Source of the DNA: an uncultured virus (IMG/VR IMGVR_UViG_3300036846_001441)
Taxonomy: Duplodnaviria; Heunggongvirae; Uroviricota; Caudoviricetes
DNA: 20,000 nt
IMG/VR virus record: IMGVR_UViG_3300036846_001441
Direction: 5' to 3' (one strand)
Notes under the pieces: generated by a model
Told to the model about the DNA's origin: nothing
Seen by the model: only the letters and a program-made list of their open reading frames with translations
Databases searched by the model: none
Position numbers and translations under genes: made by a program
In this document: positions 4,212-18,814 of the stretch, piece after piece
How positions within the stretch are numbered: the first letter of the stretch is position 1
How the letters are laid out: each line of letters opens with the position of its first letter

Positions 4212-4760
4212 ATGAAGCACCCTTGCTGGTTCGTCTACTGGCTCTACAGCGACCATGGGACGAACCCACGACTACACGGCTACGTCGGCGTCACTTGCTC
4301 TCTATTCCGCCGCATCTGGCACCACCACAATCGAGGTCTACCGGCCTTCAAAGTCAAGATCCTCCTTCGAGGAACACAAGACCAGTGCCTCGAGCTCGAA
4401 AAGCGTCTACGACCTACGCAAGACATCGGCTGGAACACGCGCGCCGGAGGTCCAACATACCAGGGCAATGGCAAGAGCCAGATCATCGACATCAGCGACA
4501 CTAGAGAGCGCGGCGCCAACAAACCAAAATCCGCAGAGACCAGAGCCAAGATGAGAGCATCAGCACTCGCTCGCTACGCCGATCCAGCTGAGCGATCCAA
4601 GACACAGAAAGCTGTGAAGAAAGCATTCGAGAACATCGACCGCTCTGGTAAAAATAACTCTCGTTTCGGCAAGCACTGCTCAGAAGAAACCAAGCAACGC
4701 ATGCGCGACACGATTGCCAAGCGTCGGCTCATCACTCCTGCTTCTGCTCGCTCAACCTGA
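4212..4760 (+). CDS. Free-standing GIY-YIG homing endonuclease with NUMOD3 DNA-binding motifs
   Basis: FVYWL...GYVGVT..LFRRIWHH...LELEKRL...GWN matches the GIY-YIG core. KSAETRAKMRAS and GKNNSRFGKHCSEETKQRMRD are NUMOD3-like. It has a good SD and is the only credible plus-strand gene. Confidence 0.85.
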   Translation: MKHPCWFVYWLYSDHGTNPRLHGYVGVTCSLFRRIWHHHNRGLPAFKVKILLRGTQDQCLELEKRLRPTQDIGWNTRAGGPTYQGNGKSQIIDISDTRERGANKPKSAETRAKMRASALARYADPAERSKTQKAVKKAFENIDRSGKNNSRFGKHCSEETKQRMRDTIAKRRLITPASARST

Positions 4761-4995
4761 TCGAGCCCTCCCTCAGCCTCCTGAAGGTGAAGGTGTCATC
4801 GGGCCACTCGATGTCGCCCTCGGCGCGAAAGCCCCCGGCTCGAGGATGCTTGAGGAGCCGCCTCATGTCATCGTCGACTGGCTCCACGCGAACCCCCTTG
4901 ATCTGGCCCTGTCCGGTTGCCCCAGTCACCATCCTATCGGCGCGGGCCTGCCTTCTCTGACCAGGCAGCATCACTTCCGTTCTAACATTGACCAT
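4732..4995 (-). CDS. DUF2635 / Mu gp38-like small tail protein
   Basis: KHPRAGGFRAEGDIEWPDDTFTFRRLREGSI resembles the small pre-sheath protein of Mu-like tails. SD AAGGAG upstream. Confidence 0.65.
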   Translation of the reverse strand: MVNVRTEVMLPGQRRQARADRMVTGATGQGQIKGVRVEPVDDDMRRLLKHPRAGGFRAEGDIEWPDDTFTFRRLREGSIRLSEQKQE

Positions 4996-4999
4996 GACC

Positions 5000-6697
5000 C
5001 TAACTCCTTCTTGCCTCTCGCAGCACGTCGAACATGTACTTGATGGAGACCTGTTGACGCTGATCCATCTCAGCCTGAGTGTCCCCGGCCTTGATGCCGG
5101 TCGTTACATCAATCTCATCCAGGGTATCGGTGATATCTGGGTACCACTCGCTGCGATAGAAGCAGCTCACCTCGTATTGAAGCTCTCCGAACGGCGTCTC
5201 ATTGTTCAATCCAGCACTTCCGAACGTGTGGCGCCTCATCCCCCTAGGCAGGCTCTCAATGCCAACGCCATATGGATTGTCATTGACCAGCACATTCATC
5301 AGCTTTGGATCGGTCCACAGTAGACTCATGATCCTCTGATAGGTCGCATCAAGCTCGAGCTCCAACTCATCAAAGTCATTATTCTCCAAGATGGCAGAGA
5401 GACCAATGCGAGACGAGTGACTGAACCTGATGCACCCGGCATTGGCGTCTCCATCCGGAGTCATCTGCTCTTCGACGATGTAGACGCCAAGATATGGCAA
5501 GAGGTCTGGCTGAACCGGATTCATCTTCATCTTGCGAAGTGTAAAATCAGAAAAATATGGATCGGCCACGATCACGTTGAATATTGCGTCGCGAGCATTC
5601 AGGGTGTAGCTGCTCTGAGAGACTGAGATGACTGTGCCACTGACCACATCATCTGCAGAGGCTGCCTCCACCGACGAGACCGGATAAGACTCTGCCCATA
5701 GAGAGGAGTCAACCGCAGAGGCTGCCTCTATTGTGGTGGCGGCATAAAGCACCACACCAGTGATTGCGCCGGCACCAATTCCAGATTCAATCAGTGCAGA
5801 AGAAGATTTCGAAGAGACACCAAGTGCGTCTGACGCGACCGCATTCTCGACGACATCAGAGACGCCGGCATTAATTATCGATCCAGTTACCGCATCCGCA
5901 CTAAATCCCGACTCCGTCATCACTCCAGTGGCATGTAAGGCAACGCTGGACGCATCTGACACCGACGCGCTTTCGCTGATACCTGGTGCCCAGACATTGT
6001 TGACCGAACCCAACGCATCGGTTGCGGCGCCAGCTTCGTTAACCGCATCGTTGTATGTGTTCCCTACTCCAGTGCCAAAGTCAGATGTCGTGATTACCGC
6101 AGCAGGTTCAATATAAAACTCAATGTCAGCACTAGTGGAGGTGGATGTGGTGTTAATCGACCATTCGCATTGGACGTAAAGATATTCATTGTTGAACGCG
6201 ATTGGCGAACTTGGTGTGAAGGTAACGTCTGATTCACCAGAAGCTGTGATTGATACTGCGCCGCTGTCTGTTCCGGTTAGGACAGAGGTCGTAAGCTCGG
6301 TAAATGTACCGGCGGCAGCGTTGTTCGAAGTTGACTTCCAAATCCGGCAGCAGACGCTCCCGGTTTGACCTCCCGACGCCAGGGCAGCACGAAGACGGAA
6401 TGCAAGTGTCCATGGAGTCGCCGCAAACGTACCGGTGTAAGGATTTTCCGAACGCCACGAAGAAGAGGTGGTCAGATTAGGAGGCGTTAATGAATCAGCC
6501 GCAGTAAAACTAGCATTACCACGCCTCGAATTGATCTGCATCAGTGACGAATTAGGAGATGAAGATTTAGAAACAACCCATCCCGTTGATGTTATACCAG
6601 CAGATGGTGCACCTCCACCATCTTGCAGAGATAAGGAAGAGTTAACTAAGACATTCTTGAGATAGAAAGTTATTGCAGCCATTGACGGCTTCTTCAC
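5000..6697 (-). CDS. Fusion of a Ser/Thr-rich beta domain, about seven 20-aa repeats and a C-terminal tail-terminator-like domain
   Basis: The C-terminal ~200 aa (ARDAIFNVI...QPDLLPYLGVYIVEEQMTPDGD...) has the pattern and position of a tail terminator. The N-terminal part is lower in GC. Start is GTG 6697 or ATG 6682. Confidence 0.6.
   Translation of the reverse strand: MKKPSMAAITFYLKNVLVNSSLSLQDGGGAPSAGITSTGWVVSKSSSPNSSLMQINSRRGNASFTAADSLTPPNLTTSSSWRSENPYTGTFAATPWTLAFRLRAALASGGQTGSVCCRIWKSTSNNAAAGTFTELTTSVLTGTDSGAVSITASGESDVTFTPSSPIAFNNEYLYVQCEWSINTTSTSTSADIEFYIEPAAVITTSDFGTGVGNTYNDAVNEAGAATDALGSVNNVWAPGISESASVSDASSVALHATGVMTESGFSADAVTGSIINAGVSDVVENAVASDALGVSSKSSSALIESGIGAGAITGVVLYAATTIEAASAVDSSLWAESYPVSSVEAASADDVVSGTVISVSQSSYTLNARDAIFNVIVADPYFSDFTLRKMKMNPVQPDLLPYLGVYIVEEQMTPDGDANAGCIRFSHSSRIGLSAILENNDFDELELELDATYQRIMSLLWTDPKLMNVLVNDNPYGVGIESLPRGMRRHTFGSAGLNNETPFGELQYEVSCFYRSEWYPDITDTLDEIDVTTGIKAGDTQAEMDQRQQVSIKYMFDVLREARRS
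5630..6052 (-). repeat. About seven degenerate 20-23 aa repeats of pattern E-x-(A/G)-x-(A/S)-x-D
   Basis: EAGAATDALG, ESASVSDASS, ESGFSADAVT, ENAVASDALG, ESGIGAGAIT, EAASAVDSSL, EAASADDVVS. Confidence 0.75.
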
Positions 6698-7281
6698 ATT
6701 GAAGCAGTGTAAGACACGTTCAGCGTGTCACCATTACCAACAACCTTGTCGCCCTGAGCAAAGGTTCCAGCACTGTAAAGCACGCCCGCCGTACTGTCGA
6801 TGGTCGACACAGCACCAGAGCCAAAGACGATGAACGCCCCCTTGAACGTACCGGCCCCAGTTACGGCAAATGAGAGGGCCGCAGAGAGAGCCTTTGCCCC
6901 TCCGCTCGAGGCCGCCCATACACAGGTCTTGCGAGGCGCACTATAGGTCGGGACATTGGCCCCACCGGCCTCAGTCCACCCGGCATGCGACGTCATCGTG
7001 TCACCGGCAACTGGCCCAGCTCCATATCCAACCGATGAGATCAATCCCATAAATGGACCAACGACGGTGTAGGCCGCACCCGCCAGATATGTGTCGAGGG
7101 CGAGGTTCTTACCCACCGTGCAGACGACGTTGTCTATCTCGTCGCACCACTTGACACGACCATCTGGACCACAACACTCAAACATGAATTTTCCAACAGC
7201 CTCAGTGCCCTCATCCAGAGAGCCTCCACGAATAACTTCGGCGTCAATTGCGTGTCGTGCCTCAGCCTTTTCGACGGTCAT
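6694..7281 (-). CDS. Putative virion structural (fibre/appendage-associated) protein
   Basis: Gly/Ala/Thr-rich, predicted beta protein (NVVCTVGKNLALD...AGDTMTSHAGWTE...GDTLNVSYTAS), tightly coupled to its neighbours in the neck module. Confidence 0.6.
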   Translation of the reverse strand: MTVEKAEARHAIDAEVIRGGSLDEGTEAVGKFMFECCGPDGRVKWCDEIDNVVCTVGKNLALDTYLAGAAYTVVGPFMGLISSVGYGAGPVAGDTMTSHAGWTEAGGANVPTYSAPRKTCVWAASSGGAKALSAALSFAVTGAGTFKGAFIVFGSGAVSTIDSTAGVLYSAGTFAQGDKVVGNGDTLNVSYTASM

Positions 7282-7282
7282 G

Positions 7283-7630
7283 TCACGTGATCCTCTTCAG
7301 CTCCAGCGTAGTCTCTCCGCCACCGTTGTGGAAGACGTTGGTTATTTGAAAGTCGCCAAGGGTTGGCAGGCCAGAGATAGGTTCAGAGGGAATGTTAATC
7401 TGATCGCCCTGAACGGGAAGCACGGAGAACTCGCTGGCCCTGATGTCCAGGATGGTCTGCTGATCGGTGAGGATGCTGCCATCCTCAAGAATCATGTTGA
7501 GCATCCGACTGTCATAGATGCCCCGTCCAGTTCCACTGAAGGAATTACCGAGCATAGAGGTGAAGGTCACCGGCCTGCCAAACGTGTCCTGACAGGGCCC
7601 ATAGACCTCATCCGACATGTTTATTGCCAT
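7283..7630 (-). CDS. Head-tail joining / head closure protein (lambda FII-like)
   Basis: 115 aa with FGRPVTF, RGIYD, LPVQGDQINI and GGGETTLELK motifs, located in the neck module. Confidence 0.7.
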   Translation of the reverse strand: MAINMSDEVYGPCQDTFGRPVTFTSMLGNSFSGTGRGIYDSRMLNMILEDGSILTDQQTILDIRASEFSVLPVQGDQINIPSEPISGLPTLGDFQITNVFHNGGGETTLELKRIT

Positions 7631-7977
7631 GACAACCTCTCCACCATCAATTTTGTCATCCGCTCATTCAGCTTATCAACGAGCTGAGGCCTCAAGATCG
7701 GGCGAGCGCTCTTCGGCCGCTTCACGCCTCCTCCCCCAACGACCCTTCTGACTACGCTCCTTTTCTTCTTCTTCTTCGCGGCCAATCGCGTCGTGGGCCA
7801 CACGCTGGTCTGCACCACATTGTCTCTCATCGTAGTGTTTGGATAGCGACGGCGCATGTCCTCAGTCTGCCACGCCGTCATCTCCTCTCTCATGTGAAAC
7901 TCAAACAGGACGAGCTCCTTGCTCATCGCATCGAGCTTTATATCTATGGCAATGGCATCGACGACTATTGCCAGCAT
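7621..7977 (-). CDS. Basic neck/tail-completion protein (possibly HK97 gp10-like)
   Basis: Lys/Arg-rich, with a C-terminal ARPILRP resembling the PFLRP motif of this class. It overlaps the next gene. Confidence 0.5.
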   Translation of the reverse strand: MLAIVVDAIAIDIKLDAMSKELVLFEFHMREEMTAWQTEDMRRRYPNTTMRDNVVQTSVWPTTRLAAKKKKKRSVVRRVVGGGGVKRPKSARPILRPQLVDKLNERMTKLMVERLSWQ

Positions 7978-8138
7978 CGCAGTACCAGGTATGGAGCAAC
8001 TCTCTTGACCATCCGTGAAGGAACTAGCATGACCACGCGCTTGGAGCGAGCCACCCTGGCGGCGCCATCCAGGGCGTCCCGCTTGATCTTAATGACTCTT
8101 GCCGCTCGCAAGAGGTCCATGGCCAATTTCGTCTTCAC
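7965..8138 (-). CDS. Small basic hypothetical protein (57 aa)
   Basis: A GTG at 8138 overlaps the capsid-2 stop (GTGA). The ORF fills the gap and overlaps the next start. No recognisable motif. Confidence 0.35.
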   Translation of the reverse strand: MKTKLAMDLLRAARVIKIKRDALDGAARVARSKRVVMLVPSRMVKRVAPYLVLRCWQ

Positions 8139-9205
8139 CAGTTCACCGCGGTCATGAAAGAGACGTGCGGGGCACGCATGCACCAATCAACCCACACGCT
8201 CATCTTCAGCGCTATGGCATCAACCTGGAACATGCTCTTCACGGGAGGCGATGCCAGCGTCCCAGGCGAGGAGCCTCCAACGATGTCCGATGGAGTAGTG
8301 TCCTCCTGATGAATCGTGGCCACCGTCCCAACCTCAAACTCCGGGGCACTGATGGTACAGGCAAAGCTGGGCGGCTCTATGGCTATGACAGTCTTGTCCG
8401 GTATGGCCCCACTGGAAACGACCGGAAGCGCATTGGTCGCAGGATCACCGAACTGACCACCCGCGTAGAAGCGCATGGCCACGGCCTGAGATGGACTTGA
8501 CACGAACATCGCGTGAGCTCCCCCATTGCGGGTAGCCAGATCGGCAACCAGCATGCCGAGATCGCGTCCAACGGCATCAAATCCCGAGGAGGTCGATGGA
8601 GTGAGTGGCGTGAGGCCATTGAGCAACCCGGCAGATTTTTGAGGACTGGCAGCCACCGCAGAGAAGATGGCAGCATCGATTGCCGGCCCGGCAGCCTCTG
8701 CCATGAGGGCTCTCAAGATCATCTCGATGTTGGAGGCCTCGCTCATCTCATTGGTAAACGTGGCAATGACGGTGAGCTTGTGCGGCCTCAGCGTCGGCCC
8801 AAGCAAACTGTACTGACGGGCAGGGACGACCTCCCCCTCCGCCTTCCACTGGCCTGCCCCTGCGAGGGTCGTCGATCTGCCAGGAACGACGACGCTGGCA
8901 AAGCGCCCAAGATCGATGTGAAGAGCCCCCGAGGCCATGAGCCTGCCTATCGCGGACATCGACACGACATCGAATATGGCATCGGACACACTCAAGGCGG
9001 CGAGGGGACCGGCCCACACTGAGTCCGTCGTCTTCGCTGGAAGAGAGGCACCCCGCAGGATGATTGGAGTCACCTGGTCTCCAGGATAGCGGTCATCCAA
9101 GACCTTCTCGATTGCCCTGCGCTCCACGAAGCTTCGCACCTTGGCGGCAGCAGCCCTCCACAGGTACGGCGGCAGTGGCGTCACCGGCTTGCGTTCTTCC
9201 TTCAT
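8135..9205 (-). CDS. Second HK97-fold major capsid-like protein (paralogue without protease or long scaffold segment)
   Basis: Co-linear with the C-terminal part of 12892..15711: WKAEGEVVPARQ vs FVGEGQPIPVRQ; PHKLTVIATFTNEM vs PKKMAVITTWTHEM; ATIHQEDTTPSDIV vs ATLHMEDTTPLDIV; KSMFQVDAIALK vs KSMWQTDSLALR. Confidence 0.9.
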   Translation of the reverse strand: MKEERKPVTPLPPYLWRAAAAKVRSFVERRAIEKVLDDRYPGDQVTPIILRGASLPAKTTDSVWAGPLAALSVSDAIFDVVSMSAIGRLMASGALHIDLGRFASVVVPGRSTTLAGAGQWKAEGEVVPARQYSLLGPTLRPHKLTVIATFTNEMSEASNIEMILRALMAEAAGPAIDAAIFSAVAASPQKSAGLLNGLTPLTPSTSSGFDAVGRDLGMLVADLATRNGGAHAMFVSSPSQAVAMRFYAGGQFGDPATNALPVVSSGAIPDKTVIAIEPPSFACTISAPEFEVGTVATIHQEDTTPSDIVGGSSPGTLASPPVKSMFQVDAIALKMSVWVDWCMRAPHVSFMTAVNW

Positions 9206-9206
9206 C

Positions 9207-9854
9207 TCACACCCAATACCTGATGTACTTGTTCAGGACATTCTTCACATTCTGCCAAGTCTCTGGAGTCCCCATCACGCCCAGGAGGTTGGGCTGATAG
9301 TAGCCAATCCGACTCTCCTTGTGACCAACCTGGCGAATGCCGAACAGGGCTGGATTGCGTATCCAACCGGAATAGCTCTCCTTCACGAGGGCCTTGACGG
9401 CAAACTTGAGTGGGCCAGGAGCATCGGTCGGCAGCACATATCCACCAGTGTACTTGGCGTCGATGACTCCGTACCACGGGCCAGTCGTCGGGTATGAGTA
9501 CAGAGTGCCGGTGTCCTCCTCCAAGACCCACAGCACGTTCGAATTGATCATCAGATCGCTGCCATCCATGGTCAACGACGAAATGTCGGCCAGCTTCACC
9601 GGCCAGCGCGACAGGTATAGCCTCTGACTCGTGCCGTCCTCCAACTGATAAAACGTCTCGTCGACGGTATCGGCGCCAAACACGCGATTGCACATCGTCG
9701 CAACGGTCTCTGATATGCTAGTGATCAGGTCGGTGAGCAAGACATCCTTGCTGGTGTCCGTCGGGGGAATCAACAGCGACGCCTTCATCTCGGCCAGAGT
9801 AACCAAGTCATAGGATGCCGCCGGAGTGATCACATTCAGTATCTGCTGCATCAC
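9207..9854 (-). CDS. Head-tail connector/adaptor (HK97 gp6-like, long form)
   Basis: LVTLAEMKASL...DVLLTDLI...CNRVF, LYLSRWPV and YTGGYVLPTDAPGPLKFAV motifs. ATGA coupling to the collagen gene. Confidence 0.85.
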   Translation of the reverse strand: MMQQILNVITPAASYDLVTLAEMKASLLIPPTDTSKDVLLTDLITSISETVATMCNRVFGADTVDETFYQLEDGTSQRLYLSRWPVKLADISSLTMDGSDLMINSNVLWVLEEDTGTLYSYPTTGPWYGVIDAKYTGGYVLPTDAPGPLKFAVKALVKESYSGWIRNPALFGIRQVGHKESRIGYYQPNLLGVMGTPETWQNVKNVLNKYIRYWV

Positions 9855-11278
9855 TGACCTCGCAGGTGACGCTCGGCCTCATACTGATCGAGCAATGGCA
9901 GCAGCGAGAACGTCGGTCCAATGGTGCCGTCACTCATCATCGCCTTCACGGTAAAGCCATCGAGCTTGACGCCGACCCAATGAGGTGCCGACTTGCCTTG
10001 ATCGCCCCTCGGCCCCTTCTCGCCGGGAAGACCCTTCTCGCCCCTCTTGCCGACTGGGCCAGACTGCCAGCCAGGCCCAGGGATGACGCCGGGATTGTCA
10101 GTCTTGGCAATGAACCATCCGTGGTCAAGGGTCACGACATCCAGGGCCGAGTAAGTCTCATCTGCAACGTGGGTGCCTCGAATCCTAAACGAAGAGCCAG
10201 CCACGCCAGCAGTCGCTATGACCCTCCACTCATCGGTGAGTCCAGGACGCTTGGCGGTATCCCTGGCGGCCTGCCAACAGCTCCCCTCCCAGGTGACGAG
10301 CTCGCCCTCGTAGAAGACGCGATCTGACCATGGGACGACGCGCGATATCACTCCGCGTGGACCTGGCTCACCTCTATCACCCTTCTCGCCCTGAGGACCT
10401 CTCCCACCCTGAGGACCAATCTGACCCATCGCGCCAATGTGACCAGGCTCGCCGCGCTCACCGCGCTCACCCATCGGACCAGGCTCACCCTTGGGGCCTT
10501 GAGCGCCAACGACGAACTGACCCTCTGGCCCAGGCTCTCCTCGCTCGCCCTTCGGACCAATCTCGCCCTGTTCACCCCGTTCACCCTGCGGCCCCTGCGC
10601 TCCAACAATAAATTGACCATCGACTCCGCGCTCGCCCTTTTCACCACGAGGACCGGGTTCGCCATTCTCGCCTGGCTCACCCTCATTGCCACGCTCGCCT
10701 GACTCACCCTTTTCTCCGCGCTCACCCTTCTCTCCGCGTTCTCCCTGAAGGCCACATTGCCCACCCGGGCCGCGCTCACCTGGAGAGCCCCTGTCTCCCT
10801 TGGCTCCCTTCTCGCCTTGCTCGCCTCGCCACCCTTGCTCGCCGCGCTCGCCCCTCTCGCCAGACTCGCCCCTCGCGCCAACGACAAACTGACCCTCTGG
10901 GCCTTGCTCGCCCTTCTCGCCGGGAGGTCCAATGTCACCCTTCTCTCCGCGCTCGCCCTGCAGTCCACGCTCGCCCTGCAGTCCGCGCTCACCCTGCAGT
11001 CCTCGATCTCCACGCTCCCCATCCCTAATCTCATCGAGGCGCTTGGCCACCTTCGAATTGACGGAGTGCTTGAGCTGAATCACATCGGCGCGAAGATTGG
11101 CCACTATCTCATCGCGTCGAGCCTGAATCACCTCCAATTCGCGCATGAACTCGCGGCGCAGCTGATCAATGATGGCGCCACCGGCATCAAGAAGCGCGTC
11201 GGAGAAGTCGTTGTCGCTCAATCTGTCTCGATCTGCTGAGCATGATCTGGGCGTACGCGTTTCGTCGTTTTGACTCAT
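9851..11278 (-). CDS. Collagen-like head-associated protein: coiled coil, Gly-X-Y repeats and Trp-rich putative carbohydrate-binding modules
   Basis: Long GER/GEK/GPQ triplet tract. C-terminal segments WSDRVFYEGELVTWEGSCWQA and TYSALDVVTLDHGWFIA resemble CBM5/12-like repeats. The true start may be TTG at 11221. Confidence 0.85.
   Translation of the reverse strand: MSQNDETRTPRSCSADRDRLSDNDFSDALLDAGGAIIDQLRREFMRELEVIQARRDEIVANLRADVIQLKHSVNSKVAKRLDEIRDGERGDRGLQGERGLQGERGLQGERGEKGDIGPPGEKGEQGPEGQFVVGARGESGERGERGEQGWRGEQGEKGAKGDRGSPGERGPGGQCGLQGERGEKGERGEKGESGERGNEGEPGENGEPGPRGEKGERGVDGQFIVGAQGPQGERGEQGEIGPKGERGEPGPEGQFVVGAQGPKGEPGPMGERGERGEPGHIGAMGQIGPQGGRGPQGEKGDRGEPGPRGVISRVVPWSDRVFYEGELVTWEGSCWQAARDTAKRPGLTDEWRVIATAGVAGSSFRIRGTHVADETYSALDVVTLDHGWFIAKTDNPGVIPGPGWQSGPVGKRGEKGLPGEKGPRGDQGKSAPHWVGVKLDGFTVKAMMSDGTIGPTFSLLPLLDQYEAERHLRGQ
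10950..11003. repeat. 3 x 18-bp tandem repeat encoding GLQGER
   Basis: cgctcgccctgcagtcca / cgctcgccctgcagtccg / cgctcaccctgcagtcct. Confidence 0.9.
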
Positions 11279-12602
11279 CTGGGGTTACCTCCGGAGGCCT
11301 CGCCGGCGGAGCAGCTGGAGGAGCTGGCGCTGGAGGTATCTTTCCTGCAGCACTCAGCGGAACGACCTGCTGCTGGACGCGAGGCTCATCCCCGAACTTG
11401 ACGCTGGGAAGGTCCTCAGAGTTTCTCGCCTCATTGGGGGCCAAGATGCCGCCCTGCACCGCCCTGGCCAAGCCATCGATGCGATCCTTGAAGGCCGATC
11501 TCAACAGGGCCTTGGTGTCGAACTCGACGTACTCATCGGGCTGCCCCTCCAGACCAAACGTCTGACCAAACGCCTCCTCAACGTGATTCAGGCAAAAGCC
11601 AAGGCCACTGCTTATCCACTGCTGCATCATGGCCTCTGCCGACCCAGCGGTGCCGGACTCCAGGCCGAGGATCGGAGGCGGCACGCGAAAGGCCATGGCA
11701 ATGTCTTGATCGGTCATCTTCAGCACCTCGGCGAGCTGAGCGTCACGAAACGGTATGTTCGGCATCGCCATGGGCTTCAAGCCAGCGGATAGGATCGGGG
11801 TGCCTCCAACATTGACCCCAGAGGTCTGCTCCGTCCACCTGTCCCTCAGCGCGCTGGCCTCGTCCTTGGTGAGCAGGAGGTCCGTCGACAACACGGTGCC
11901 TGGCTTGGCCTGATTCTGATAGAACGTGGTCTGCTGCGACCTGATCGATACTCCAGTGGAGACATCCAGATACGCGCTGACGAGGGGGCTCTCTCCGCGA
12001 AGGGGATTCCGAAGCTGGTCGACGTGAAGCTTGATGTGCATCACGTCTCTCTGAGGGACCTGAGCCAGGGCCTCGGGATAGCGATTCTGCACGATCCAGT
12101 TACCGCCGAGGGCATAGAAGACCTCGCCCTCGCCGCCAATCAGGGCTCGGCAGTAGCGGTTATCCATCAGGTGAAGCTCGACTATCTCGAAGCGATTGTT
12201 GCGAACGCAGTAGAAATATGAATTGCCCTCGAGATAGAGCTGCCTGATGGCATTGAGCATCAGGTCGGAAATCGACTGATAATCGTTGGGCTGTCGCAGT
12301 ATTCGCGACAGCGAGGAAGTGGTGACTCGCTCGCGCCCACCATTGGGCTTGCTCCTCCAGTGGTCCCCAGGGCACATTGCCACGGTCTGACTGTAGGCGC
12401 TGAGGCACGCCTCGATGATGGCAAGCTGGGAGCCTACCAACAGAGGGGTGTATCCATTCTGCCACCAGTTAACGCTCTGCCCAACGTCACCAGGCAGCCA
12501 GCCATGAGTGACAGGCAGGTAGTAAGGGCCAGGACGATACGCGCCCTCGGTCGCCTTCGAGACGACCGAGGACACGACCTTGGAGAGCCAGTCAAAAATC
12601 AT
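11187..12602 (-). CDS. Portal protein (HK97 family)
   Basis: LRQPNDYQS, LYLEGNSY, DVMHIKL, LRGESPL, IAMAFRVPPPILG, YVEFDTKALLR and GILAPNEARNSEDLP motifs. Confidence 0.95.
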   Translation of the reverse strand: MIFDWLSKVVSSVVSKATEGAYRPGPYYLPVTHGWLPGDVGQSVNWWQNGYTPLLVGSQLAIIEACLSAYSQTVAMCPGDHWRSKPNGGRERVTTSSLSRILRQPNDYQSISDLMLNAIRQLYLEGNSYFYCVRNNRFEIVELHLMDNRYCRALIGGEGEVFYALGGNWIVQNRYPEALAQVPQRDVMHIKLHVDQLRNPLRGESPLVSAYLDVSTGVSIRSQQTTFYQNQAKPGTVLSTDLLLTKDEASALRDRWTEQTSGVNVGGTPILSAGLKPMAMPNIPFRDAQLAEVLKMTDQDIAMAFRVPPPILGLESGTAGSAEAMMQQWISSGLGFCLNHVEEAFGQTFGLEGQPDEYVEFDTKALLRSAFKDRIDGLARAVQGGILAPNEARNSEDLPSVKFGDEPRVQQQVVPLSAAGKIPPAPAPPAAPPARPPEVTPDESKRRNAYAQIMLSRSRQIERQRLLRRAS

Positions 12603-12886
12603 GACTCTCGCTTTGCCGTTGACCCAGGCCGCTGAGCACTCTCCACGTGCCTGGTCTGATACGGGGCACCAGAGCCGGCCTGAAGCTCCTTCTTGACAGG
12701 GAGCCCCTGACCAAGATCGGGTGGAGAGCCATCCGGCTCGATCGTCTCGGGTGGATGCCCGAGCATGGTCAGGTCGATCTCCATCTGAGTCGGAGTCGGC
12801 CTGCCACCAGCCTTGGCGCGTTCGGCCATGGCCTTCTGCCGCTGAGCATTCTGCTCCTCCAGCGTCTTCTTGACATCATCTGACAT
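12599..12886 (-). CDS. Small hypothetical protein between capsid and portal genes
   Basis: Likely start is ATG 12886 (AAAGGA upstream). Contains RPTPTQMEIDL..LG...EPDGSPPD and YQTR. ATGA coupling to the portal gene. Confidence 0.7.
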   Translation of the reverse strand: MSDDVKKTLEEQNAQRQKAMAERAKAGGRPTPTQMEIDLTMLGHPPETIEPDGSPPDLGQGLPVKKELQAGSGAPYQTRHVESAQRPGSTAKRES

Positions 12887-12891
12887 TTCTC

Positions 12892-15711
12892 TCATCCTTT
12901 CCAAACGACGCCGGTCATCCATGAGGAGACTGGGCGCCGCATGATCCAGTTCACGAACATGATCAGCCTCAGGGCCAGGCTATCAGTCTGCCACATCGAC
13001 TTGGTGGGCCATGCCGGCGTGCCGACAGTGCCAGTCCCCGAGACGATGTCCAAGGGAGTGGTGTCCTCCATATGGAGCGTGGCCTGGTCGCTGATCTCGA
13101 GGCGCGGCCCCTCCTGACCGACCGCAACAAAGTCGGCGGCATCGACCATGATCGCCGTGCCGGCAGGCACAGTCGAGGACTCGATGAGGTCGGCCTTGAG
13201 GACGCGACCAGCATCGACCATTCCCATGAAGGGATAGAGGGGAGCGGCCGCGGCGGCAGGCTGCAGCATGCTGAGGCTCAATCCCTGCTGAGGATTAACT
13301 ATCAGCGTCGGGCTCCTGACGTTGCCATTGGTCAGCGTCAAGAGCTGGCCATACAGCGCCATGTAGTCGGCCGTGAAGTTGACGTAGCCGGCACCGACTC
13401 CAGTGGCCGCGTTCGCAGTGAGCGCAGTCTGATACGACCTCAGGCCCGGAGGCCTGACCGACGTTGCCGCATTGGTGTCGAGCAGCAGGGTGTCCATGGC
13501 GATTGCCGTGTCCTCGAGGATGGCGGCCCTCAGCAGGCCCTCGATCGCCGGGGTGCTGTGCTCGTCCATCTCGTGGGTCCACGTCGTGATGACGGCCATC
13601 TTCTTCGGCACAACGGTCTGAGACGCGAACGCGCCCTGCCTCACCGGAATGGGCTGACCCTCTCCCACGAAGCTTCCCGAGATCGCCGGCGTCAGATTGC
13701 GAGTGGGGATGACAATCTTCCCTGCCGGGCCGAAGGTCAGTGACAGGCCCTTCGCCGCCAGCTTGGGATACACGCTCATGGGGTACAGGACCTCCATGAA
13801 GCTTGCCCACACGGTCTGGACGAGCTCCTGAGCCCACCCGGCGACTCCGGTCAGGGCCGGTGCGCTGGCTGCCTTGAGCACCAGGTCGCAGACTGCACGC
13901 GTCGCCTCATCGTCGCCGTATATCTTGCGGCGAGTGTCATCGATGGTGTGACCATCGGCACGCGACTTTGCCCGCACCACGGCCGCCCTGAAGAAGTAGT
14001 CCAGCGGCTCCGGCTTCTTGGCCCTCTTGAGGGTGAGGCCATCTGGGAGCCGGATAACATCCTTGCGCCGTGACAGAGCAAGATCATTTCCGGGCGGCCT
14101 CTCGGCGTCCTCGGCGGCAGAGCCGTTCTGCTTCTCGATGGCCTTGAGGTTGCCTATGTTGCGCGAGGACATCTCAATCTTGGCCGTTAAGTCCTCGGTC
14201 TTGATCATATCCTCTTCATTGGGATTGTCGTCGTCGACGTTGACGAGGTGCTTCTCGAGCTGCTCCTGCAGGGCGAGGTGCCTCTTCTCCGCCTCTTGAA
14301 TGCGTTGAGAGAGCAACATTGGTTGACCCTTTCTGTGCTCAATCTGTCTGGGTTCGGCATGCTCGCCAATTGATCTTGCAACGCGCCTCTTGTCGGCATT
14401 CTCGCCTCGCATTGCGTCGCGCCTCACGGTTGAGCTGGCATGCTCGCCAAACACCATGCTGAGCGTTGAGTTCGAAATCTTCAGGCTCTTGGCCACGGCC
14501 AACGCATTGGGATTGGCCGGCACCGCCACGAGAGAGACCTCGACGAGATCGGACTTGGTGTAGATGACGCCTCGGCTATCCTTCCGCGGCTCGTGAGAGA
14601 CCGCCTTGAAGCCGACGCTGACGGCGCGCAGGATGTCCGCCTCGACCAGCGTCCTTATCTCGTCGATTCGCTCCGAGGCCCCCTTCGGCGCCAGCTTGAG
14701 GTGACCCTGAAGCCGATTGTCGACGACCCTGATGTTCTGCCACTTGCCGACGATGAAGTCGCTCCTGTGACCGAACAGCGCGACGGGATTCTTCCTGAAG
14801 TTATCCAGCAGCCATCCATTGCTCATGATCACGTCGTCGAGGCGATCCGGCGTCTCGTCGGAGAGCACGAACTCCATTCCGTTGACCTCGGAGGAGTGAG
14901 TCTTGTGAACGATCGTCTCCGAGTCGGCAGCCCTGTTGTTCTCCCAGATCATGTCGCAGGCATCCTCGTCATCGATCGAGTCGAGGCACCTGTCCATGAA
15001 GTCGTCGTAGCTCTCGTCATCCTCGGGCTGGAGATCGTCCTGCTTGTTGCTCTCGCCATGCTCCTCTCGCCACGCGCTCATGCAAATTGCCACGGCCTGG
15101 TCCTGGGGACGCTTGTCGTCTCCGGTGCCGATCATCTCCGGCACGCAGCGAGTCATGAAGTCACTCTGACTCTCGCCCTTGCGAGGCTTCATTGGCATGG
15201 CGGCATCCTCCTTCGCCTTCCACAACTCATCATTGTCCAGCACACTCTTGAGCTTCAGCAGGGCATCGAGGACTGGGTCATCGTTTTCCATGCTCTTGTG
15301 ACCTCGAAGCGCAACCAGGGCATTGACTGCGTTCTGCATGTGGTCGCGAGCCTGAGCCATAGATATCTTCGCGCCATCGGCGAAGTGCACCACATTGTCG
15401 TGGATGGCATCGTGAACGTCCAGGGGGAAGTCGACGCCGGCAATGTGGTACAGCGAGATGGTGACCGCGGCCGCGAGCAGCTCCTTCTGGTTCTCCTTGA
15501 GCGCGTGACCGACCTTGTTGATGACCGCTCTGCCGTGCTGGTTGATGAACTGGCCGACCGGCCCCTTCATAAAGCCGCTGGGCACCTTCCCACCACCGGG
15601 CTTCGACGACCCTCCTCCGCCACCGCCGCCGGTCCACTTGCCCGACTCGTCGCGAGGCTCGTCGTCGCTGTATTTCAGTCGCACGTCAAGGGGTGGCATG
15701 GGATCAGACAA
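12892..15711 (-). CDS. Fused N-terminal accessory domain + HK97-type prohead protease + major capsid protein
   Basis: Protease motifs: FVLSDETPDRLDDVI, NPVALFGH, LRAVSVGF, LVEVSLVAVPANPNAL. These are followed by a coiled-coil segment and an HK97-fold capsid domain. The start may be ATG 15699. In-frame internal SD+ATG pairs occur at 15198 and 14319. Confidence 0.93.
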   Translation of the reverse strand: MSDPMPPLDVRLKYSDDEPRDESGKWTGGGGGGGSSKPGGGKVPSGFMKGPVGQFINQHGRAVINKVGHALKENQKELLAAAVTISLYHIAGVDFPLDVHDAIHDNVVHFADGAKISMAQARDHMQNAVNALVALRGHKSMENDDPVLDALLKLKSVLDNDELWKAKEDAAMPMKPRKGESQSDFMTRCVPEMIGTGDDKRPQDQAVAICMSAWREEHGESNKQDDLQPEDDESYDDFMDRCLDSIDDEDACDMIWENNRAADSETIVHKTHSSEVNGMEFVLSDETPDRLDDVIMSNGWLLDNFRKNPVALFGHRSDFIVGKWQNIRVVDNRLQGHLKLAPKGASERIDEIRTLVEADILRAVSVGFKAVSHEPRKDSRGVIYTKSDLVEVSLVAVPANPNALAVAKSLKISNSTLSMVFGEHASSTVRRDAMRGENADKRRVARSIGEHAEPRQIEHRKGQPMLLSQRIQEAEKRHLALQEQLEKHLVNVDDDNPNEEDMIKTEDLTAKIEMSSRNIGNLKAIEKQNGSAAEDAERPPGNDLALSRRKDVIRLPDGLTLKRAKKPEPLDYFFRAAVVRAKSRADGHTIDDTRRKIYGDDEATRAVCDLVLKAASAPALTGVAGWAQELVQTVWASFMEVLYPMSVYPKLAAKGLSLTFGPAGKIVIPTRNLTPAISGSFVGEGQPIPVRQGAFASQTVVPKKMAVITTWTHEMDEHSTPAIEGLLRAAILEDTAIAMDTLLLDTNAATSVRPPGLRSYQTALTANAATGVGAGYVNFTADYMALYGQLLTLTNGNVRSPTLIVNPQQGLSLSMLQPAAAAAPLYPFMGMVDAGRVLKADLIESSTVPAGTAIMVDAADFVAVGQEGPRLEISDQATLHMEDTTPLDIVSGTGTVGTPAWPTKSMWQTDSLALRLIMFVNWIMRRPVSSWMTGVVWKG

Positions 15712-16687
15712 ATTCCCAATCCACGACGCCCTTCCCCTCGATCCCGATCCTGGCCGCCAAGGCTGGGGAGAGATCTATGCCGGCAGGATTGCTGGGCACC
15801 TTGCCCTCATGGGGCCCGCTGGGGAGGGGCTCGTCGGAGTAGAAGCACTGCTCAGCGATGGGCCTGGCATCCCTGTAGAAGTAGTCGTCATCAGTCATCC
15901 ACGGGCCGACGTCCAATATATCGGCCACCTCCGACTCTTCAGTATCGCGATTATAAACCCTGACCCGCGGACGATCGCCCTGGAAGCGATACGGCAGCGC
16001 CACGTACATGCTCTCGTCGTCGAGCACCAGATCGGGGTCGTACGCCGACGTGTTGTAGTCGGCCTCTCCGCCAAACACAGTGGCGGTGATTGCGGCGCGG
16101 CAATCAGGAATGCCGACGGGGCGAATATCGCTCCCCTCTAATCTGTCATCGCCGAGAAGCTCATCGGCCAACGCCCCGGCAATGGCATCACAGATCAGGC
16201 GAAAATTCTCCCTGTACAGTGAGCAATCAGCGCCGCTGTCGACGAAGCACGTCTCGATCAAGATGGCCGGCTTCTCGGTGTTGTTCAGGAAGTAGAGGTC
16301 AGAACGATGCTTGGCACCGCGATCGATGAAGCCACCGGCAACGGCGATGGCGTCGCTGACGTCCTCCGCCAGGGTGCCATCCGTCACGTAGAGGACCTCC
16401 GTCCCCATTGGATTGCTGGTCGCCTCGTAGGCATTGAAGTGGACCGAGACGTCGATGTCCCGCTCGCACTCGTTGTGGAACGAGACGATGGCCTCGAGGT
16501 TCTCGCTCTGGGTATCAGATATGTCGTCGTGATAGGTAATGGCGCTGACGCCATCACGCATCAATAGCCTGGCAACCTCGTCGACTACGCGTCTCGCCTC
16601 GTTGACCTCATCGAGGCCCCACGGTGGCGGCCCAGAGGCTCCCCTGACCTTGAGGGAGTGACCAGAGGAGATGACCACGCCAGGCAT
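15704..16687 (-). CDS. Endolysin: N-acetylmuramoyl-L-alanine amidase (Amidase_3) plus a C-terminal RlpA-like double-psi beta-barrel domain
   Basis: Zn-amidase motifs ISSGH, LDE, VSVHFNA and PAILIETCFVD. The C-terminal domain has ATVFGG...YVALP...ILDVGPW...GIDLSPALA. SD GGAGG at 16698-16694. Confidence 0.88.
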   Translation of the reverse strand: MPGVVISSGHSLKVRGASGPPPWGLDEVNEARRVVDEVARLLMRDGVSAITYHDDISDTQSENLEAIVSFHNECERDIDVSVHFNAYEATSNPMGTEVLYVTDGTLAEDVSDAIAVAGGFIDRGAKHRSDLYFLNNTEKPAILIETCFVDSGADCSLYRENFRLICDAIAGALADELLGDDRLEGSDIRPVGIPDCRAAITATVFGGEADYNTSAYDPDLVLDDESMYVALPYRFQGDRPRVRVYNRDTEESEVADILDVGPWMTDDDYFYRDARPIAEQCFYSDEPLPSGPHEGKVPSNPAGIDLSPALAARIGIEGKGVVDWEFV

Positions 16688-17212: not shown

Positions 17213-18814
17213 TCATGCGATCATGGCAGAGATGTCCAGCGCCTTCGGCCGCTCCTTGACCATCCCCGCGGACAGGGCCATGGCCATGGCGACCAGTGCG
17301 TCGATCCTGCTCCTGTACTTGGACTGACTCTTGTCGAACTTCCTGCCTCCGGCGTGGTCCTTGACGATGACTGCGTTGTTGGCGCACCACGTCAGCACGG
17401 GATTGTTGCCGTGACGAATCTTGCCCTGAACGATTAACCGCTCAATGGCATCGACGGCGGGAGACATGTCCTTGAATCCCATGCCATGCTCGACCAGGGG
17501 GACGCTGCAGCCAATCGCCTCCATCTCTCGCTTCACCTCCGCCATCCTCCACCTGTCGAACGCCAGGCCCTTGATTGGAGTGATGGAGTTGATCCTGGCT
17601 ATCTCGGCGGCAACCGCCCTGGGATCTGTGGCTATGCCAGACGCGACGATGATGCCCTGCTTCTCCCAGACGTCGTAGGGGACGCCGTCCTCATCGCTTC
17701 GCTCCTTCAGGTTGCCGGGCACCCACACCGTGGGATGAACATGCCACTCGCCGCTCCTCTCATCGTGCCTGGCCGTGACGATGGCCGTGAGGTCTCGCGT
17801 GCTGCCCAGGTCAAGGCCCGCCCACACGGCAGAGCCTGGAGGAATGATTGCATCGCCCCCGCACGCCTTCCACGCCGTTGGCTCCATGAACCTCGACTCC
17901 GAGGCCACTCGCTGGTTCAGGATCAGGTTGCGAAACGCATTCTCCTTCGTCGGCATCCGCTTGGCCTGATCGGCCAGCCGCCTGACGTCCTCCAGGCTCC
18001 TGAAGTCATTCAGCGCTGGATTGGCTGCCTTCCACGCCGTTATCAGCCACGGGTCGGCATCCTCCGGCGCGGCGTAGAGCGTAAGGTGAAATGCCGGGTC
18101 AATGATCTCCTTGGAATTGACCTTGATGCCGTAGTCGATGAGGTGAGAGAGCGGGGCATAGCTATCGGCCGCCTGGGTGGAGATGATGAGCATCAGCGGC
18201 TCCCTCCTCGCACCCATGGCGCTGTCCATGGCGTCGTACAGCTCCCTGTTCAGGGCCTGACCATACTCGTCGTACACCACGAAGCTGGGCGACAGCCCCA
18301 TCTTGGTCTTCGCCTCGCTGGTGAGGGTGTGATAGATCGTGCCGTTGTGGAGGTCCTCCATGCTCTTGGTGAACTTCGATATGTTTATTCGCGCCGCCAG
18401 CCAGGGATGGCGCAGCACGATGGCCTCCATCTCGTTGAATATCTTTCCGGCCTGGAACCTGTCGTTGGCACAGGCGTAGACCTCACCCCTCGGCTCGGCC
18501 TCTGGGCCGGAGAGGTGACACAGCGCCATGGCGGCGGCGAGCTGGGTCTTGCCGTTCTTCCTGGCCATCGACAGGATCGCGGTGCGAACCGGGCGAATGC
18601 CCCTATTGTCCTCCCTGTAGACCGCCTTGATGAACCGCTTCTGAAAGGGCCTCAGCACCAGCTTCTTACCGGCCTCGGCGCCGGACGTGACGTAGAGGTC
18701 CTCGCAGAACGCCATCACTCGCTCGTCCCGCTCGAGGTCGAAATTGTCCCACGGGACCGGCATCTCAGGCGGCGGCTTCTGCTTGGGTCTTGCTCCTATC
18801 CCTCTGCGACCCAT
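17213..18814 (-). CDS. terL: Terminase large subunit (HK97-like, Terminase_1 type)
   Basis: LRPFQ, Walker A MARKNGKT, Walker B VVYDE, IISTQ coupling motif, WKAANPAL, and nuclease motifs AGLDLG, FDRW and RIDALVAMAMA. Confidence 0.97.
   Translation of the reverse strand: MGRRGIGARPKQKPPPEMPVPWDNFDLERDERVMAFCEDLYVTSGAEAGKKLVLRPFQKRFIKAVYREDNRGIRPVRTAILSMARKNGKTQLAAAMALCHLSGPEAEPRGEVYACANDRFQAGKIFNEMEAIVLRHPWLAARINISKFTKSMEDLHNGTIYHTLTSEAKTKMGLSPSFVVYDEYGQALNRELYDAMDSAMGARREPLMLIISTQAADSYAPLSHLIDYGIKVNSKEIIDPAFHLTLYAAPEDADPWLITAWKAANPALNDFRSLEDVRRLADQAKRMPTKENAFRNLILNQRVASESRFMEPTAWKACGGDAIIPPGSAVWAGLDLGSTRDLTAIVTARHDERSGEWHVHPTVWVPGNLKERSDEDGVPYDVWEKQGIIVASGIATDPRAVAAEIARINSITPIKGLAFDRWRMAEVKREMEAIGCSVPLVEHGMGFKDMSPAVDAIERLIVQGKIRHGNNPVLTWCANNAVIVKDHAGGRKFDKSQSKYRSRIDALVAMAMALSAGMVKERPKALDISAMIA

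Follow-up and report, generated by a model that had tools for sequence, protein, structure and literature searches.

The window, a stretch of 20,000 nucleotides from an uncultured member of the Caudoviricetes (IMG/VR IMGVR_UViG_3300036846_001441), carries a phage head-tail module in which two separate genes encode homologues of the HK97 shell protein (Table 1). The longer product, MCP1, combines protease, scaffold-like and capsid parts in one chain, and its residues 259-929 match PHROG 617, 'major head protein'. The shorter, MCP2, is encoded 3.7 kb away, with the portal, collagen-like and adaptor genes lying between. Its ATG falls one base past the adaptor stop codon, in agreement with an earlier placement of a second capsid gene after a gp6-like connector, and in relatives without MCP2 the g118/Hc1 region directly follows the adaptor gene. 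Pfam and PHROG searches of the window found no integrase or primase near MCP2. Lying as it does inside a full phage head-tail module, the MCP2 gene is not satellite-encoded.

Table 1. Features of the head module, in coordinates of the window.
Feature	Position	Strand	Description
g118 + head-closure Hc1 gene	7283..7977	(-)	downstream of MCP2
MCP2	8135..9205	(-)	356 aa, scaffold-less HK97-fold capsid homologue of the 'solo' lineage
MCP2 N-terminal 51 residues	9053..9205	(-)	possible short propeptide (mini delta domain), putatively ending between R51 and G52
gp6-like head-tail adaptor	9207..9854	(-)	PF05135 at 0.0013; PHROG 442 at 3.6e-18
Portal protein	11187..12602	(-)	PF04860 at 1.5e-62
Small conserved gene between MCP1 and portal	12599..12922	(-)	107 aa, no family found
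MCP1	12892..15711	(-)	939-aa fusion: N-terminal extension, S78 prohead protease, scaffold-like segment, capsid domain
MCP1 capsid (HK97) domain	12895..14031	(-)	residues 561-939; BLASTP alignment, PHROG 617
MCP1 scaffold-like charged segment	14032..14466	(-)	residues 416-560; assigned from sequence; absent in MCP2
MCP1 protease part	14467..14916	(-)	residues 266-415; Pfam Peptidase_S78 match at 308-409

The MCP2 reading frame opens with ATG and has no internal stops. In BLASTP its whole length (residues 1-356) pairs with residues 561-937 of the 939-aa MCP1, with 119/382 identities (31%), 48% positives and an E value of 5e-41, confirming the preliminary description of an intact gene that pairs over its full extent with the capsid domain of its neighbor and is strongly diverged from it. 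The conserved blocks quoted there are present, namely PHKLTVIATFTNEM in MCP2 opposite PKKMAVITTWTHEM in MCP1, ATIHQEDTTPSDIV opposite ATLHMEDTTPLDIV, and KSMFQVDAIAL opposite KSMWQTDSLAL, with a terminal W in both proteins; the first, however, reads EG...P.RQ, with three residues rather than two between G and P. The PHROG 617 match of MCP2 (E 2.9e-15) is confined to the capsid part of the profile, positions 328-615 of 626, so MCP2 lacks the protease and scaffold segments. The same description had called the missing segment a coiled coil, which we would word only as scaffold-like. Profile searches give a mixed picture for MCP2, with this PHROG match but, in Pfam, no family for MCP2 itself at E <= 0.01; PF05065 is precomputed on many of its close relatives, and its satellite relatives score above the PF05065 cut-off. 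A tblastn search with MCP2 of 50,697 phage records matched fused genes only, at 25-26% identity in 3 records.

The N-terminal 51 residues of MCP2 pair with MCP1 residues 561-613, placing 'ILR GAS' opposite 'VLK AAS'. R51, which pairs with K613 of MCP1, is at least 90% conserved among 71 family members, and the structural model shows helices at residues 14-50 followed by a stretch of pLDDT<50 at 55-59. MCP2 may therefore be processed between R51 and G52; cleavage after K/R is described for the SaPIbov5 protein Ccm and for phi12 CP (PMC8569155).

An HK97 fold is predicted for MCP2. Its AF2 model has a pLDDT of 82.7 and yields 272 PDB matches at E<=0.001 in Foldseek, with phage capsids and encapsulins in the top rows, and it superimposes on HK97 prohead I (8fqk_D) with a VIA Z of 15.7 and an rmsd of 4.1 (244 aligned). 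The model of the MCP1 capsid domain is of low confidence (pLDDT 69.1), a limit that applies to the extra short A-domain helix seen in it relative to the MCP2 model. The A-domain has a median length of 104 aa (93-106) in 17 rows of the MCP2 clade versus 114 (107-120) in 52 fused rows, and medians across all scaffold-less, or 'solo', copies are 97-104 aa against the same 114; solo copies also lack the same two residues at the spine helix. Identity between MCP2 and its own MCP1, set against that of 20 distant fused orthologues less than 46% identical to the window's MCP1 (WIN_MCP1), is 46% versus 44% in the P-domain, 23% versus 52% in the N-arm and 21% versus 32% in the A-domain. Because capsid proteins in general vary most in their A-domains, the domain pattern and the shortened A-domain do no more than hint at a penton rather than a hexon position. 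MCP2 has the reduced axial domain reported for the penton protein MCPp of Mycobacterium abscessus phage Jabs (preprint 10.64898/2026.07.24.740622).

MCP2-type proteins fall into 86 clusters, most of them of about 350 aa and 47-75% identity. Of 36 distinct loci spanning the junction between the adaptor and g118/Hc1, 14 carry MCP2 at that junction, a fifteenth carrier (L014) has its copy before the sheath gene, and 21 have no copy from the MCP2 clade, L033, L089 and L121 among the latter having a solo copy at the TerL site instead. In all 9 carriers with a visible MCP1, this protein shares 66% or more identity with its counterpart in the window, and in all 21 non-carriers 58% or less; a second HK97 shell homologue beside the main MCP is found at 15 loci of one phage subclade, to which MCP2 is confined. 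Since heads are evidently built from MCP1 alone in the relatives lacking MCP2, a capsid of this type has no intrinsic need of MCP2. The frame is intact in 17/17 MCP2-clade loci extracted, and dN/dS values from unsaturated pairs indicate purifying selection: 0.113 for L017/L019 (dS 0.26), 0.104 for L023/L024 and 0.151 for L017/L015, with 0.118 for MCP1 and 0.101 for the portal gene in the first pair. Pairwise identity of MCP2, over pairs that are non-independent, tracks that of MCP1 (r 0.89, 36 pairs), portal (0.85) and adaptor (0.72) but not that of sheath (0.14) or tube (0.01). Trees and locus comparison place the second copy in its own syntenic clade, and it is neither sporadic nor decaying, so that the earlier proposal of a genuine second capsid gene in the head operon, resting on fold, selection and synteny alike, is upheld.

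The same proposal had treated the two genes as diverged paralogues within one genome, a simple form of kinship that the phylogeny does not support. In trees rooted with two distant outgroups, all solo copies form one clade, the fused domains fall on one side of a branch (98/89 support, 97% of bootstrap trees), and the sister group of the solo clade is the entire fused clade as sampled. Forcing MCP2 to group with its own MCP1 costs 313 lnL (p-AU 7.6e-5), which rules out a recent duplicate of MCP1 as its source and points to an old solo lineage. Rapid evolution, with the long branches it produces, may account in part for how deep the solo clade sits in the tree, a bias that the AU test shares. 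Phage-borne solo copies occur at two different sites, after the adaptor (MCP2) and next to TerL (a second subclade), and a single phage-borne solo clade, a group named after the tree had been seen, is rejected (delta lnL 122, p-AU 6.7e-8). None of the deeper fused clades has MCP2, and every deep branch of the solo clade includes satellites.

Most non-phage members of the solo clade lie in small islands with a PICI-like set of integrase, AlpA, primase, capsid gene and small terminase, and 16 of the 19 annotated solo copies outside phage modules adjoin an integrase and/or a primase-type gene. Across the 16 PICI-like loci (L026, L027, L115-L119, L128, L130, L133, L136, L138, L139, L141, L148 and L152), an integrase match is present in 11, a primase-type gene in 12, AlpA in two (L141, L148) and a small terminase in two (L026, L027), with no portal, protease, TerL or tail match in any of them within the DNA examined. 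As judged from gene content, these loci are consistent with PICI-like satellites, each showing part of the set only. Their hosts are soil Alphaproteobacteria, with islands in Bradyrhizobium and Xanthobacteraceae genomes. The nearest non-phage relatives of MCP2 are satellite genes 37-44% identical to it. The L026 island, composed of integrase, capsid gene and small terminase, has an MCP2-type gene that is 56% identical and nested inside the phage MCP2 clade, and its small terminase shares 28-33% identity with ORFs from 13 loci of the phages with a fused MCP; these ORFs lie upstream of TerL wherever TerL is visible. L026 shows that transfer from phage to satellite can occur.

We propose, with a probability of roughly 45%, that MCP2 is a minor shell protein of the type of Ccm, T4 gp24 and Jabs MCPp that co-assembles with MCP1, most likely as pentons. 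MCP2 would be unable to build a head alone; MCP1 would supply protease and scaffold for co-assembly and form the hexamers, and MCP2 would presumably enter the virion, most likely as the pentameric vertex capsomers. Among the roles suggested earlier for the second copy, that of a vertex capsomer is the best supported, through the precedent of SaPIbov5 Ccm, Jabs MCPp and T4 gp24. The gene itself would derive from the old scaffold-less lineage, whose observed reservoir is the PICI-like islands of soil Alphaproteobacteria; one phage subclade would have gained it, probably from that direction, and then inherited it vertically with the head module. A more speculative and rather doubtful extension is that the phage domesticated the Ccm-like penton protein of its own satellites, such that MCP2 both builds vertices and shuts out head-shrinking satellite versions, with L026 as a counter-move and the TerL-site subclade as an independent repeat of the capture.

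Homology, selection and linkage to the head module would also fit a shell subunit that is not a dedicated penton and instead forms mixed or special hexamers or determines the T number, and with it the dimensions or form of the head, so that carriers would build another capsid than their relatives without MCP2. Changes in head size caused by satellite-encoded capsid homologues are on record (PMC8569155), and contigs with MCP2-type genes reach 73-87 kb, which would be large for T=7, though such contigs are not necessarily complete genomes. We consider this unlikely, as the second HK97 shell homologue sits at the pentons in every solved case considered here (Ccm, Jabs, T4 gp24).

Improbable to a similar degree is a protein that serves mainly in conflict and is dispensable for the phage's own head, either as a domesticated satellite protein for capsid redirection that takes up assembly sites and so keeps satellite versions from shrinking the head, or as a poison for the assembly of competing related phages. 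The satellite setting of its nearest non-phage relatives and the nested position of the L026 gene would fit such an arms race, and for phi12 escape mutants Hawkins et al. proposed that CP may outcompete Ccm at pentamers (PMC8569155). Conflict genes, however, usually turn over and move, whereas the stable inheritance of MCP2, its one late-operon position and a dN/dS like that of core head genes are typical of a structural part.

MCP2 might also function as we propose and yet stem from an ancient duplication within the phage lineage, in the manner of T4 gp23/gp24, that was mostly lost and repeatedly captured by satellites. The tree alone, with the solo clade sister to the whole fused clade, cannot distinguish this from an old separate lineage, and L026 is an example of transfer from phage to satellite. 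We give the duplication little credence: it needs many losses, in the 21 of 36 junction loci and throughout the deeper fused clades, as well as several satellite captures to populate every deep solo branch, and it sits poorly with the rejection of the post hoc single phage-borne clade. Finally, a decoy for capsid-sensing host defences, for which nothing specific speaks beyond a capsid look-alike expressed late, is very improbable, and so is a non-functional passenger from an integrated satellite. Against the passenger speak intact frames, low dN/dS, conserved position, co-divergence with head genes and the lack of an integrase or primase nearby in the window.

A head made of two different HK97 shell proteins is a rarity, with T4 as the textbook case. 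A 2026 preprint calls the dual-MCP head of Jabs unprecedented among icosahedral phages (10.64898/2026.07.24.740622). To these the present analysis adds an entire lineage of myophage-like elements of soil Alphaproteobacteria that carry a second shell gene. It also adds a family of satellite islands, not described before, that bear capsid genes in Bradyrhizobium and Xanthobacteraceae genomes, and it ties the two together phylogenetically; a literature search, within the library covered, found no paper on the phage group, the islands or a phage-encoded relative of a satellite capsid protein. Should this link prove sound, the exchange of genes between satellites and helpers would extend to the capsid shell itself, and the system would be a tractable one for the origin of penton specialisation and for asking whether phages can convert the weapon of a satellite into a shield or a structural component.

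Among known head modules, that of 933W/Stx2-phage type shares with MCP1 the protease-MCP fusion of PHROG 617, and Stx2a_WGPS6 and Rhizobium phage RHph_X2_26 share the annotated order TerL, fusion, small gene and portal; unlike the window, they have a single capsid gene within the stretches inspected. T4 likewise has two HK97-fold shell homologues in one phage, the paralogues gp23 in hexamers and gp24, the minor one, at vertices. It differs in its separate scaffold core and protease, which MCP1 fuses, in its adjacent capsid genes, and in that gp24 is regarded as a local duplicate whereas MCP2 falls apart from the MCP1 of its own phage in the tree. The Jabs preprint, which cites gp24 as a vertex protein, describes a long MCPh (594 aa) and a short MCPp (257 aa) in the same phage, the latter filling 11 pentons and having a 'reduced axial domain' (10.64898/2026.07.24.740622); the A-domain of MCP2 is likewise shorter than that of MCP1. 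The Jabs genes, in contrast, are adjacent (ORF72/73), its pentons come from a solved structure where the present phage is known from genes and models, and the available part of the preprint reports no satellite link. Ccm of the staphylococcal satellite SaPIbov5 (PDB 7rwz), a 355-aa capsid homologue that redirects capsid size and has a short delta domain, is reported to fill procapsid pentamers and not to assemble alone (PMC8569155). MCP2 is likened to it by fold rather than by direct sequence comparison, and differs in being phage-encoded in a late head operon and inherited with the phage, in having a partner that carries protease and scaffold in one chain, and in belonging to soil Alphaproteobacteria instead of staphylococci. 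Both are about 355 aa long and homologous to the capsid protein of their helper or partner, and both have an N-terminal assembly domain, putative in MCP2, that is much shorter than in the main protein; relatives of MCP2, like Ccm, are satellite-encoded near integrase, primase and small-terminase genes.

The second capsid gene of the window is a real feature. MCP2, a capsid homologue without protease and scaffold segments, was aligned by BLASTP over residues 1-356 with residues 561-937 of MCP1, the protease-scaffold-capsid fusion, at 31% identity (E 5e-41), bearing out the end-to-end relationship proposed in the preliminary description. The sequence blocks listed there as shared are present in both proteins, except that one has three residues between G and P rather than two. 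The match of MCP2 to PHROG 617 ('major head protein'), a family that covers residues 259-929 of MCP1, is confined to the capsid part (E 2.9e-15), and no Pfam family matched MCP2 at E<=0.01. An AlphaFold2 model of MCP2, built on an alignment of 71 relatives, has a pLDDT of 82.7; Foldseek returned 272 matches at E<=0.001, including phage capsids and encapsulins, and comparison with HK97 prohead I gave a VIA Z of 15.7. The predicted structure agrees with an HK97 fold.

The relevant genes of the window all lie on the minus strand and together comprise a myophage-type head-tail module, as annotated with Pfam and PHROGs (Table). This arrangement, with TerL followed by the protease-MCP fusion, the small gene and the portal, is known, and is identically annotated in Stx2a_WGPS6 and Rhizobium phage RHph_X2_26. 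Within MCP1, an N-terminal extension is followed by an S78 protease domain (Pfam, residues 308-409), a charged scaffold-like segment and the capsid domain. Neither MCP1 nor MCP2 has a clear Shine-Dalgarno sequence at its start by eye, which gives no clue to stoichiometry.

Table. Head-tail genes of the window and other features discussed in the text
Feature	Position	Strand	Remark
Possible small terminase	19103-19696	-	no family match
TerL	17213-18814	-	
Amidase_3 gene	15704-16687	-	
MCP1	12892-15711	-	939-aa fusion
MCP1 residues 1-265	14917-15711	-	
107-aa gene	between MCP1 and portal	-	
Portal	11187-12602	-	
Collagen-repeat protein	9851-11278	-	Pfam E 4.6e-40
gp6-like adaptor	9207-9854	-	
MCP2	8135-9205	-	356-aa ORF
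Gap after MCP2	~7967-8120	-	157 bp
g118	after MCP2	-	
Head-closure Hc1	7283-7630	-	
Two genes of unknown type	between Hc1 and NUMOD3-like gene		
NUMOD3/homing-endonuclease-like gene	4212-4760	+	
Sheath, tube, tail chaperone, tape measure	after NUMOD3-like gene	-	
L119, satellite capsid protein	9336-10550		
L129, double TIR-domain (ThsB-like) protein	5641-6942	-	
L138, superinfection-immunity domain protein	4706-5305	+	

Several further features of the module were recorded. The collagen-triple-helix-repeat gene keeps its site between portal and adaptor throughout the phage group, also in relatives that lack MCP2; this location points to a fibre of the head or neck, though PHROGs label such proteins tail fibres. 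The gene for the N-acetylmuramoyl-L-alanine amidase separates TerL from the fusion, whose listed TTG start it overlaps, and it has a homologue at the same site only in L090 among the mapped loci. The first 265 residues of MCP1 contain a poly-Gly run as well as a 'DFMxRC ... C..W' motif, present twice, that is also N-terminal in the satellite capsid protein of L119; no family match was found. The gap after MCP2 holds, by eye, a small ORF of ~50 codons overlapping the start of g118, and of the relatives only the closest (L001, L003 and L004) have a similar gap, the other carriers being gapless. Finally, the NUMOD3-like gene, which runs against the other genes, separates the head-completion genes from the sheath gene, and its homologues in relatives occur elsewhere (between the sheath and tube genes of L005; also in L018, L020 and L023), the variation in site expected of a mobile endonuclease.

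The matches to MCP2 fall into three bands of identity: orthologues in phage head modules (at least 50%), genes without phage head or tail neighbours (37-44%), and the capsid domains of fused, MCP1-type genes (30-36%). Nineteen loci outside phage modules that carry a solo copy, that is, an MCP2-like capsid gene without protease or scaffold, were annotated with Pfam and PHROGs. An integrase and/or a primase-type gene lies beside the capsid gene in 16 of these (L026, L027, L115-L119, L128, L130, L133, L136, L138, L139, L141, L148 and L152), and neither was present in the DNA examined of L120, L125 and L144. AlpA is encoded by two loci (L141, L148) and a small terminase by two others (L026, L027); none of the 19 loci matched portal, protease, TerL or tail proteins in the DNA examined. 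Typically an integrase gene is followed by AlpA, a primase, the capsid gene, between one and three small ORFs and, finally, the small terminase; several islands are flanked by host genes. Judged by gene content, this is the layout of PICI-like satellites. Among 401 genomes searched from the family of Bradyrhizobium jicamae, 12 matched the MCP2 profile, and five of the islands came from this source. Genome G221 contains island L119 together with a fused-MCP prophage. Thirteen phage loci of the fused-MCP group have ORFs that share 28-33% identity with the small terminase of L026, and these lie upstream of TerL wherever the latter is visible. Possible defence cargo was noted beside the capsid gene in the satellite-like islands L129 and L138 (Table).

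The phylogeny of these capsid domains was examined in a quick tree of 115 rows and a careful tree of 66 rows, with the two annotated fused capsid genes as root; the solo copies have long branches, the two outgroups are distant, and 23 rows could not be classified because their contigs are too short. The fused domains all fall in one group (support 98/89; 97% of bootstrap trees) and the solo copies all in the other, in which satellite copies occupy every deep branch. The MCP2 clade (SH-aLRT support 100, quick trees) is nested among satellite copies, and island L026 lies inside this phage clade. In a second phage subclade (L033, L051, L089, L121, L153, L167, L169, L185 and L200), TerL is separated from the fusion by a different solo copy, and the clade of these copies (support 100/99, careful tree) is likewise nested among satellite genes. 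Uniting all phage-borne solo copies, a group named after the tree had been seen, costs 122 log-likelihood units (p-AU 6.7e-8). Evidence independent of branch lengths comes from the start of the spine helix, where all solo copies have a two-residue deletion (30 aa, versus 32 in 52 of 52 fused rows and both outgroups); the median length of the A-domain is 97-104 residues in solo copies and 114 in fused ones. The most economical reading of these sequences is that an old scaffold-less lineage has been kept mainly in satellites, was taken up by phages at least twice, and moved back at least once (L026). Less economically, an ancient duplication in a phage, followed by many losses, may have been the source of the solo lineage. 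A recent tandem-style duplication of MCP1 is rejected by the AU test, in which constraining MCP2 to join the MCP1 of its own phage costs 313 log-likelihood units (p-AU 7.6e-5); the earlier view of MCP2 as simply a diverged in-genome paralogue of MCP1 is not supported, the trees placing it in the solo lineage.

A further MCP-like stretch adjoins the TerL-site solo copy in L167 and L051, and some genomes of this subclade may thus hold three capsid homologues. The 383-aa ORF that follows the TerL-site copy in L121 was considered as another third homologue and rejected, as it has no similarity to capsid proteins (E 3.7 and 2.1).

Within a single phage subclade, MCP2 is conserved and under selection. 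A protein search yielded 86 clusters, mostly of ~350 aa and 47-75% identical, and tblastn was used to place the proteins of the window on loci drawn from IMG/VR, GTDB genomes and metagenomes. Thirty-six distinct loci span the junction from the adaptor to g118/Hc1; an MCP2 orthologue is present there in 14, which belong to one subclade, and absent in 22. One of the 22, L014 (the same contig as L123), has MCP2 between Hc1 and the sheath gene instead, and in L124 it directly precedes the sheath gene. With no MCP2 between them, g118 comes immediately after the adaptor gene in the Bradyrhizobium prophages L006, L008, L009 and L013. The MCP1 proteins of carriers form one starred clade: all nine that are visible are at least 66% identical to that of the window, versus at most 58% in all 21 non-carriers. 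The dN/dS of MCP2 in unsaturated pairs is 0.113 (L017/L019), 0.104 and 0.151, like that of MCP1 (0.118) and portal (0.101) in L017/L019; on these values and the synteny, a passenger or decaying gene was rejected. MCP2 diverges faster, with a mean within-clade protein identity of 56% versus 72% for MCP1. In descriptive correlations over non-independent genome pairs, its identity follows that of MCP1 (r 0.89, 36 pairs), portal (0.85, 55 pairs) and adaptor (0.72, 78 pairs), and not that of Hc1 (0.44), sheath (0.14) or tube (0.01). Between the window and L002, for example, identity is 74% for MCP2, 80% for MCP1 and 77% for portal, versus 40% for Hc1 and 59% for sheath. Thus, MCP2 travels with the head module.

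A tblastn search of 50,697 deposited phage genomes with MCP2 matched only fused capsid genes (25-26% identity, three records), so no isolate there carries an orthologue. Scanning genome contigs with the single MCP2 protein gave 70 pattern matches, none confirmed; an alignment-based scan succeeded. Six MCP2-profile matches lie in one Xanthobacteraceae MAG, G002, the genome of L005 (contigs C68, C219, C278 and C196), in which one module carries MCP2, two more contain the fused gene, a TerL-site-type solo copy accompanying one of them, and a short contig bears another solo copy; these may represent several related phages or bin contamination.

The mechanism of MCP2 is proposed by analogy with Ccm, the capsid homologue of satellite SaPIbov5. 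According to the Ccm report (PMC8569155), its delta domain has 87 residues and that of the helper capsid protein 128, cleavage follows a K or R in both, and Ccm occupies pentons. The first 51 residues of MCP2 align with the last part of the MCP1 scaffold segment; they end at R51, whose conservation is at least 90% and whose counterpart in MCP1 is K613, immediately ahead of the shared 'AAS.PA.T' block, and the model is disordered just after this residue. Since MCP2, like Ccm, has a short N-terminal segment ending at a basic residue, it would enter procapsids built on the MCP1 scaffold and be trimmed by the MCP1 protease. When MCP2 was compared with its own MCP1, beside 20 distant fused orthologues (<46% identical to the MCP1 of the window), identity in the P-domain was similar (46% versus 44%), and was lower in the N-arm (23% versus 52%) and A-domain (21% versus 32%). 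This pattern suggests a protein that would form its own capsomer yet dock on MCP1 capsomers. Complex prediction for MCP2 with the MCP1 capsid domain scored 0.00 in two runs without controls and bears neither way. Pentons are also occupied by the Jabs protein MCPp, with its reduced axial domain, and by T4 gp24, as cited in the Jabs preprint (10.64898/2026.07.24.740622). With a second shell homologue at this site in all three systems, MCP2 may be a penton subunit, a tentative assignment to which we give a probability of about 0.45; we are more confident that it would be some co-assembling component of the shell.

The literature searched yielded Ccm, Jabs and T4 as precedents, and no account of either the phage group or the islands. 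The 'second major capsid protein' of the JBD30 paper was set aside, as the term refers to two subunits of one protein. Ccm is encoded by a satellite, whereas MCP2 is encoded by a phage; Jabs MCPh/MCPp and T4 gp23/gp24 are phage-encoded pairs, as are MCP1 and MCP2. The window combines both kinds: its second shell gene is encoded by the phage, has its relatives among satellite genes, and is accompanied by a protease-scaffold-MCP fusion.
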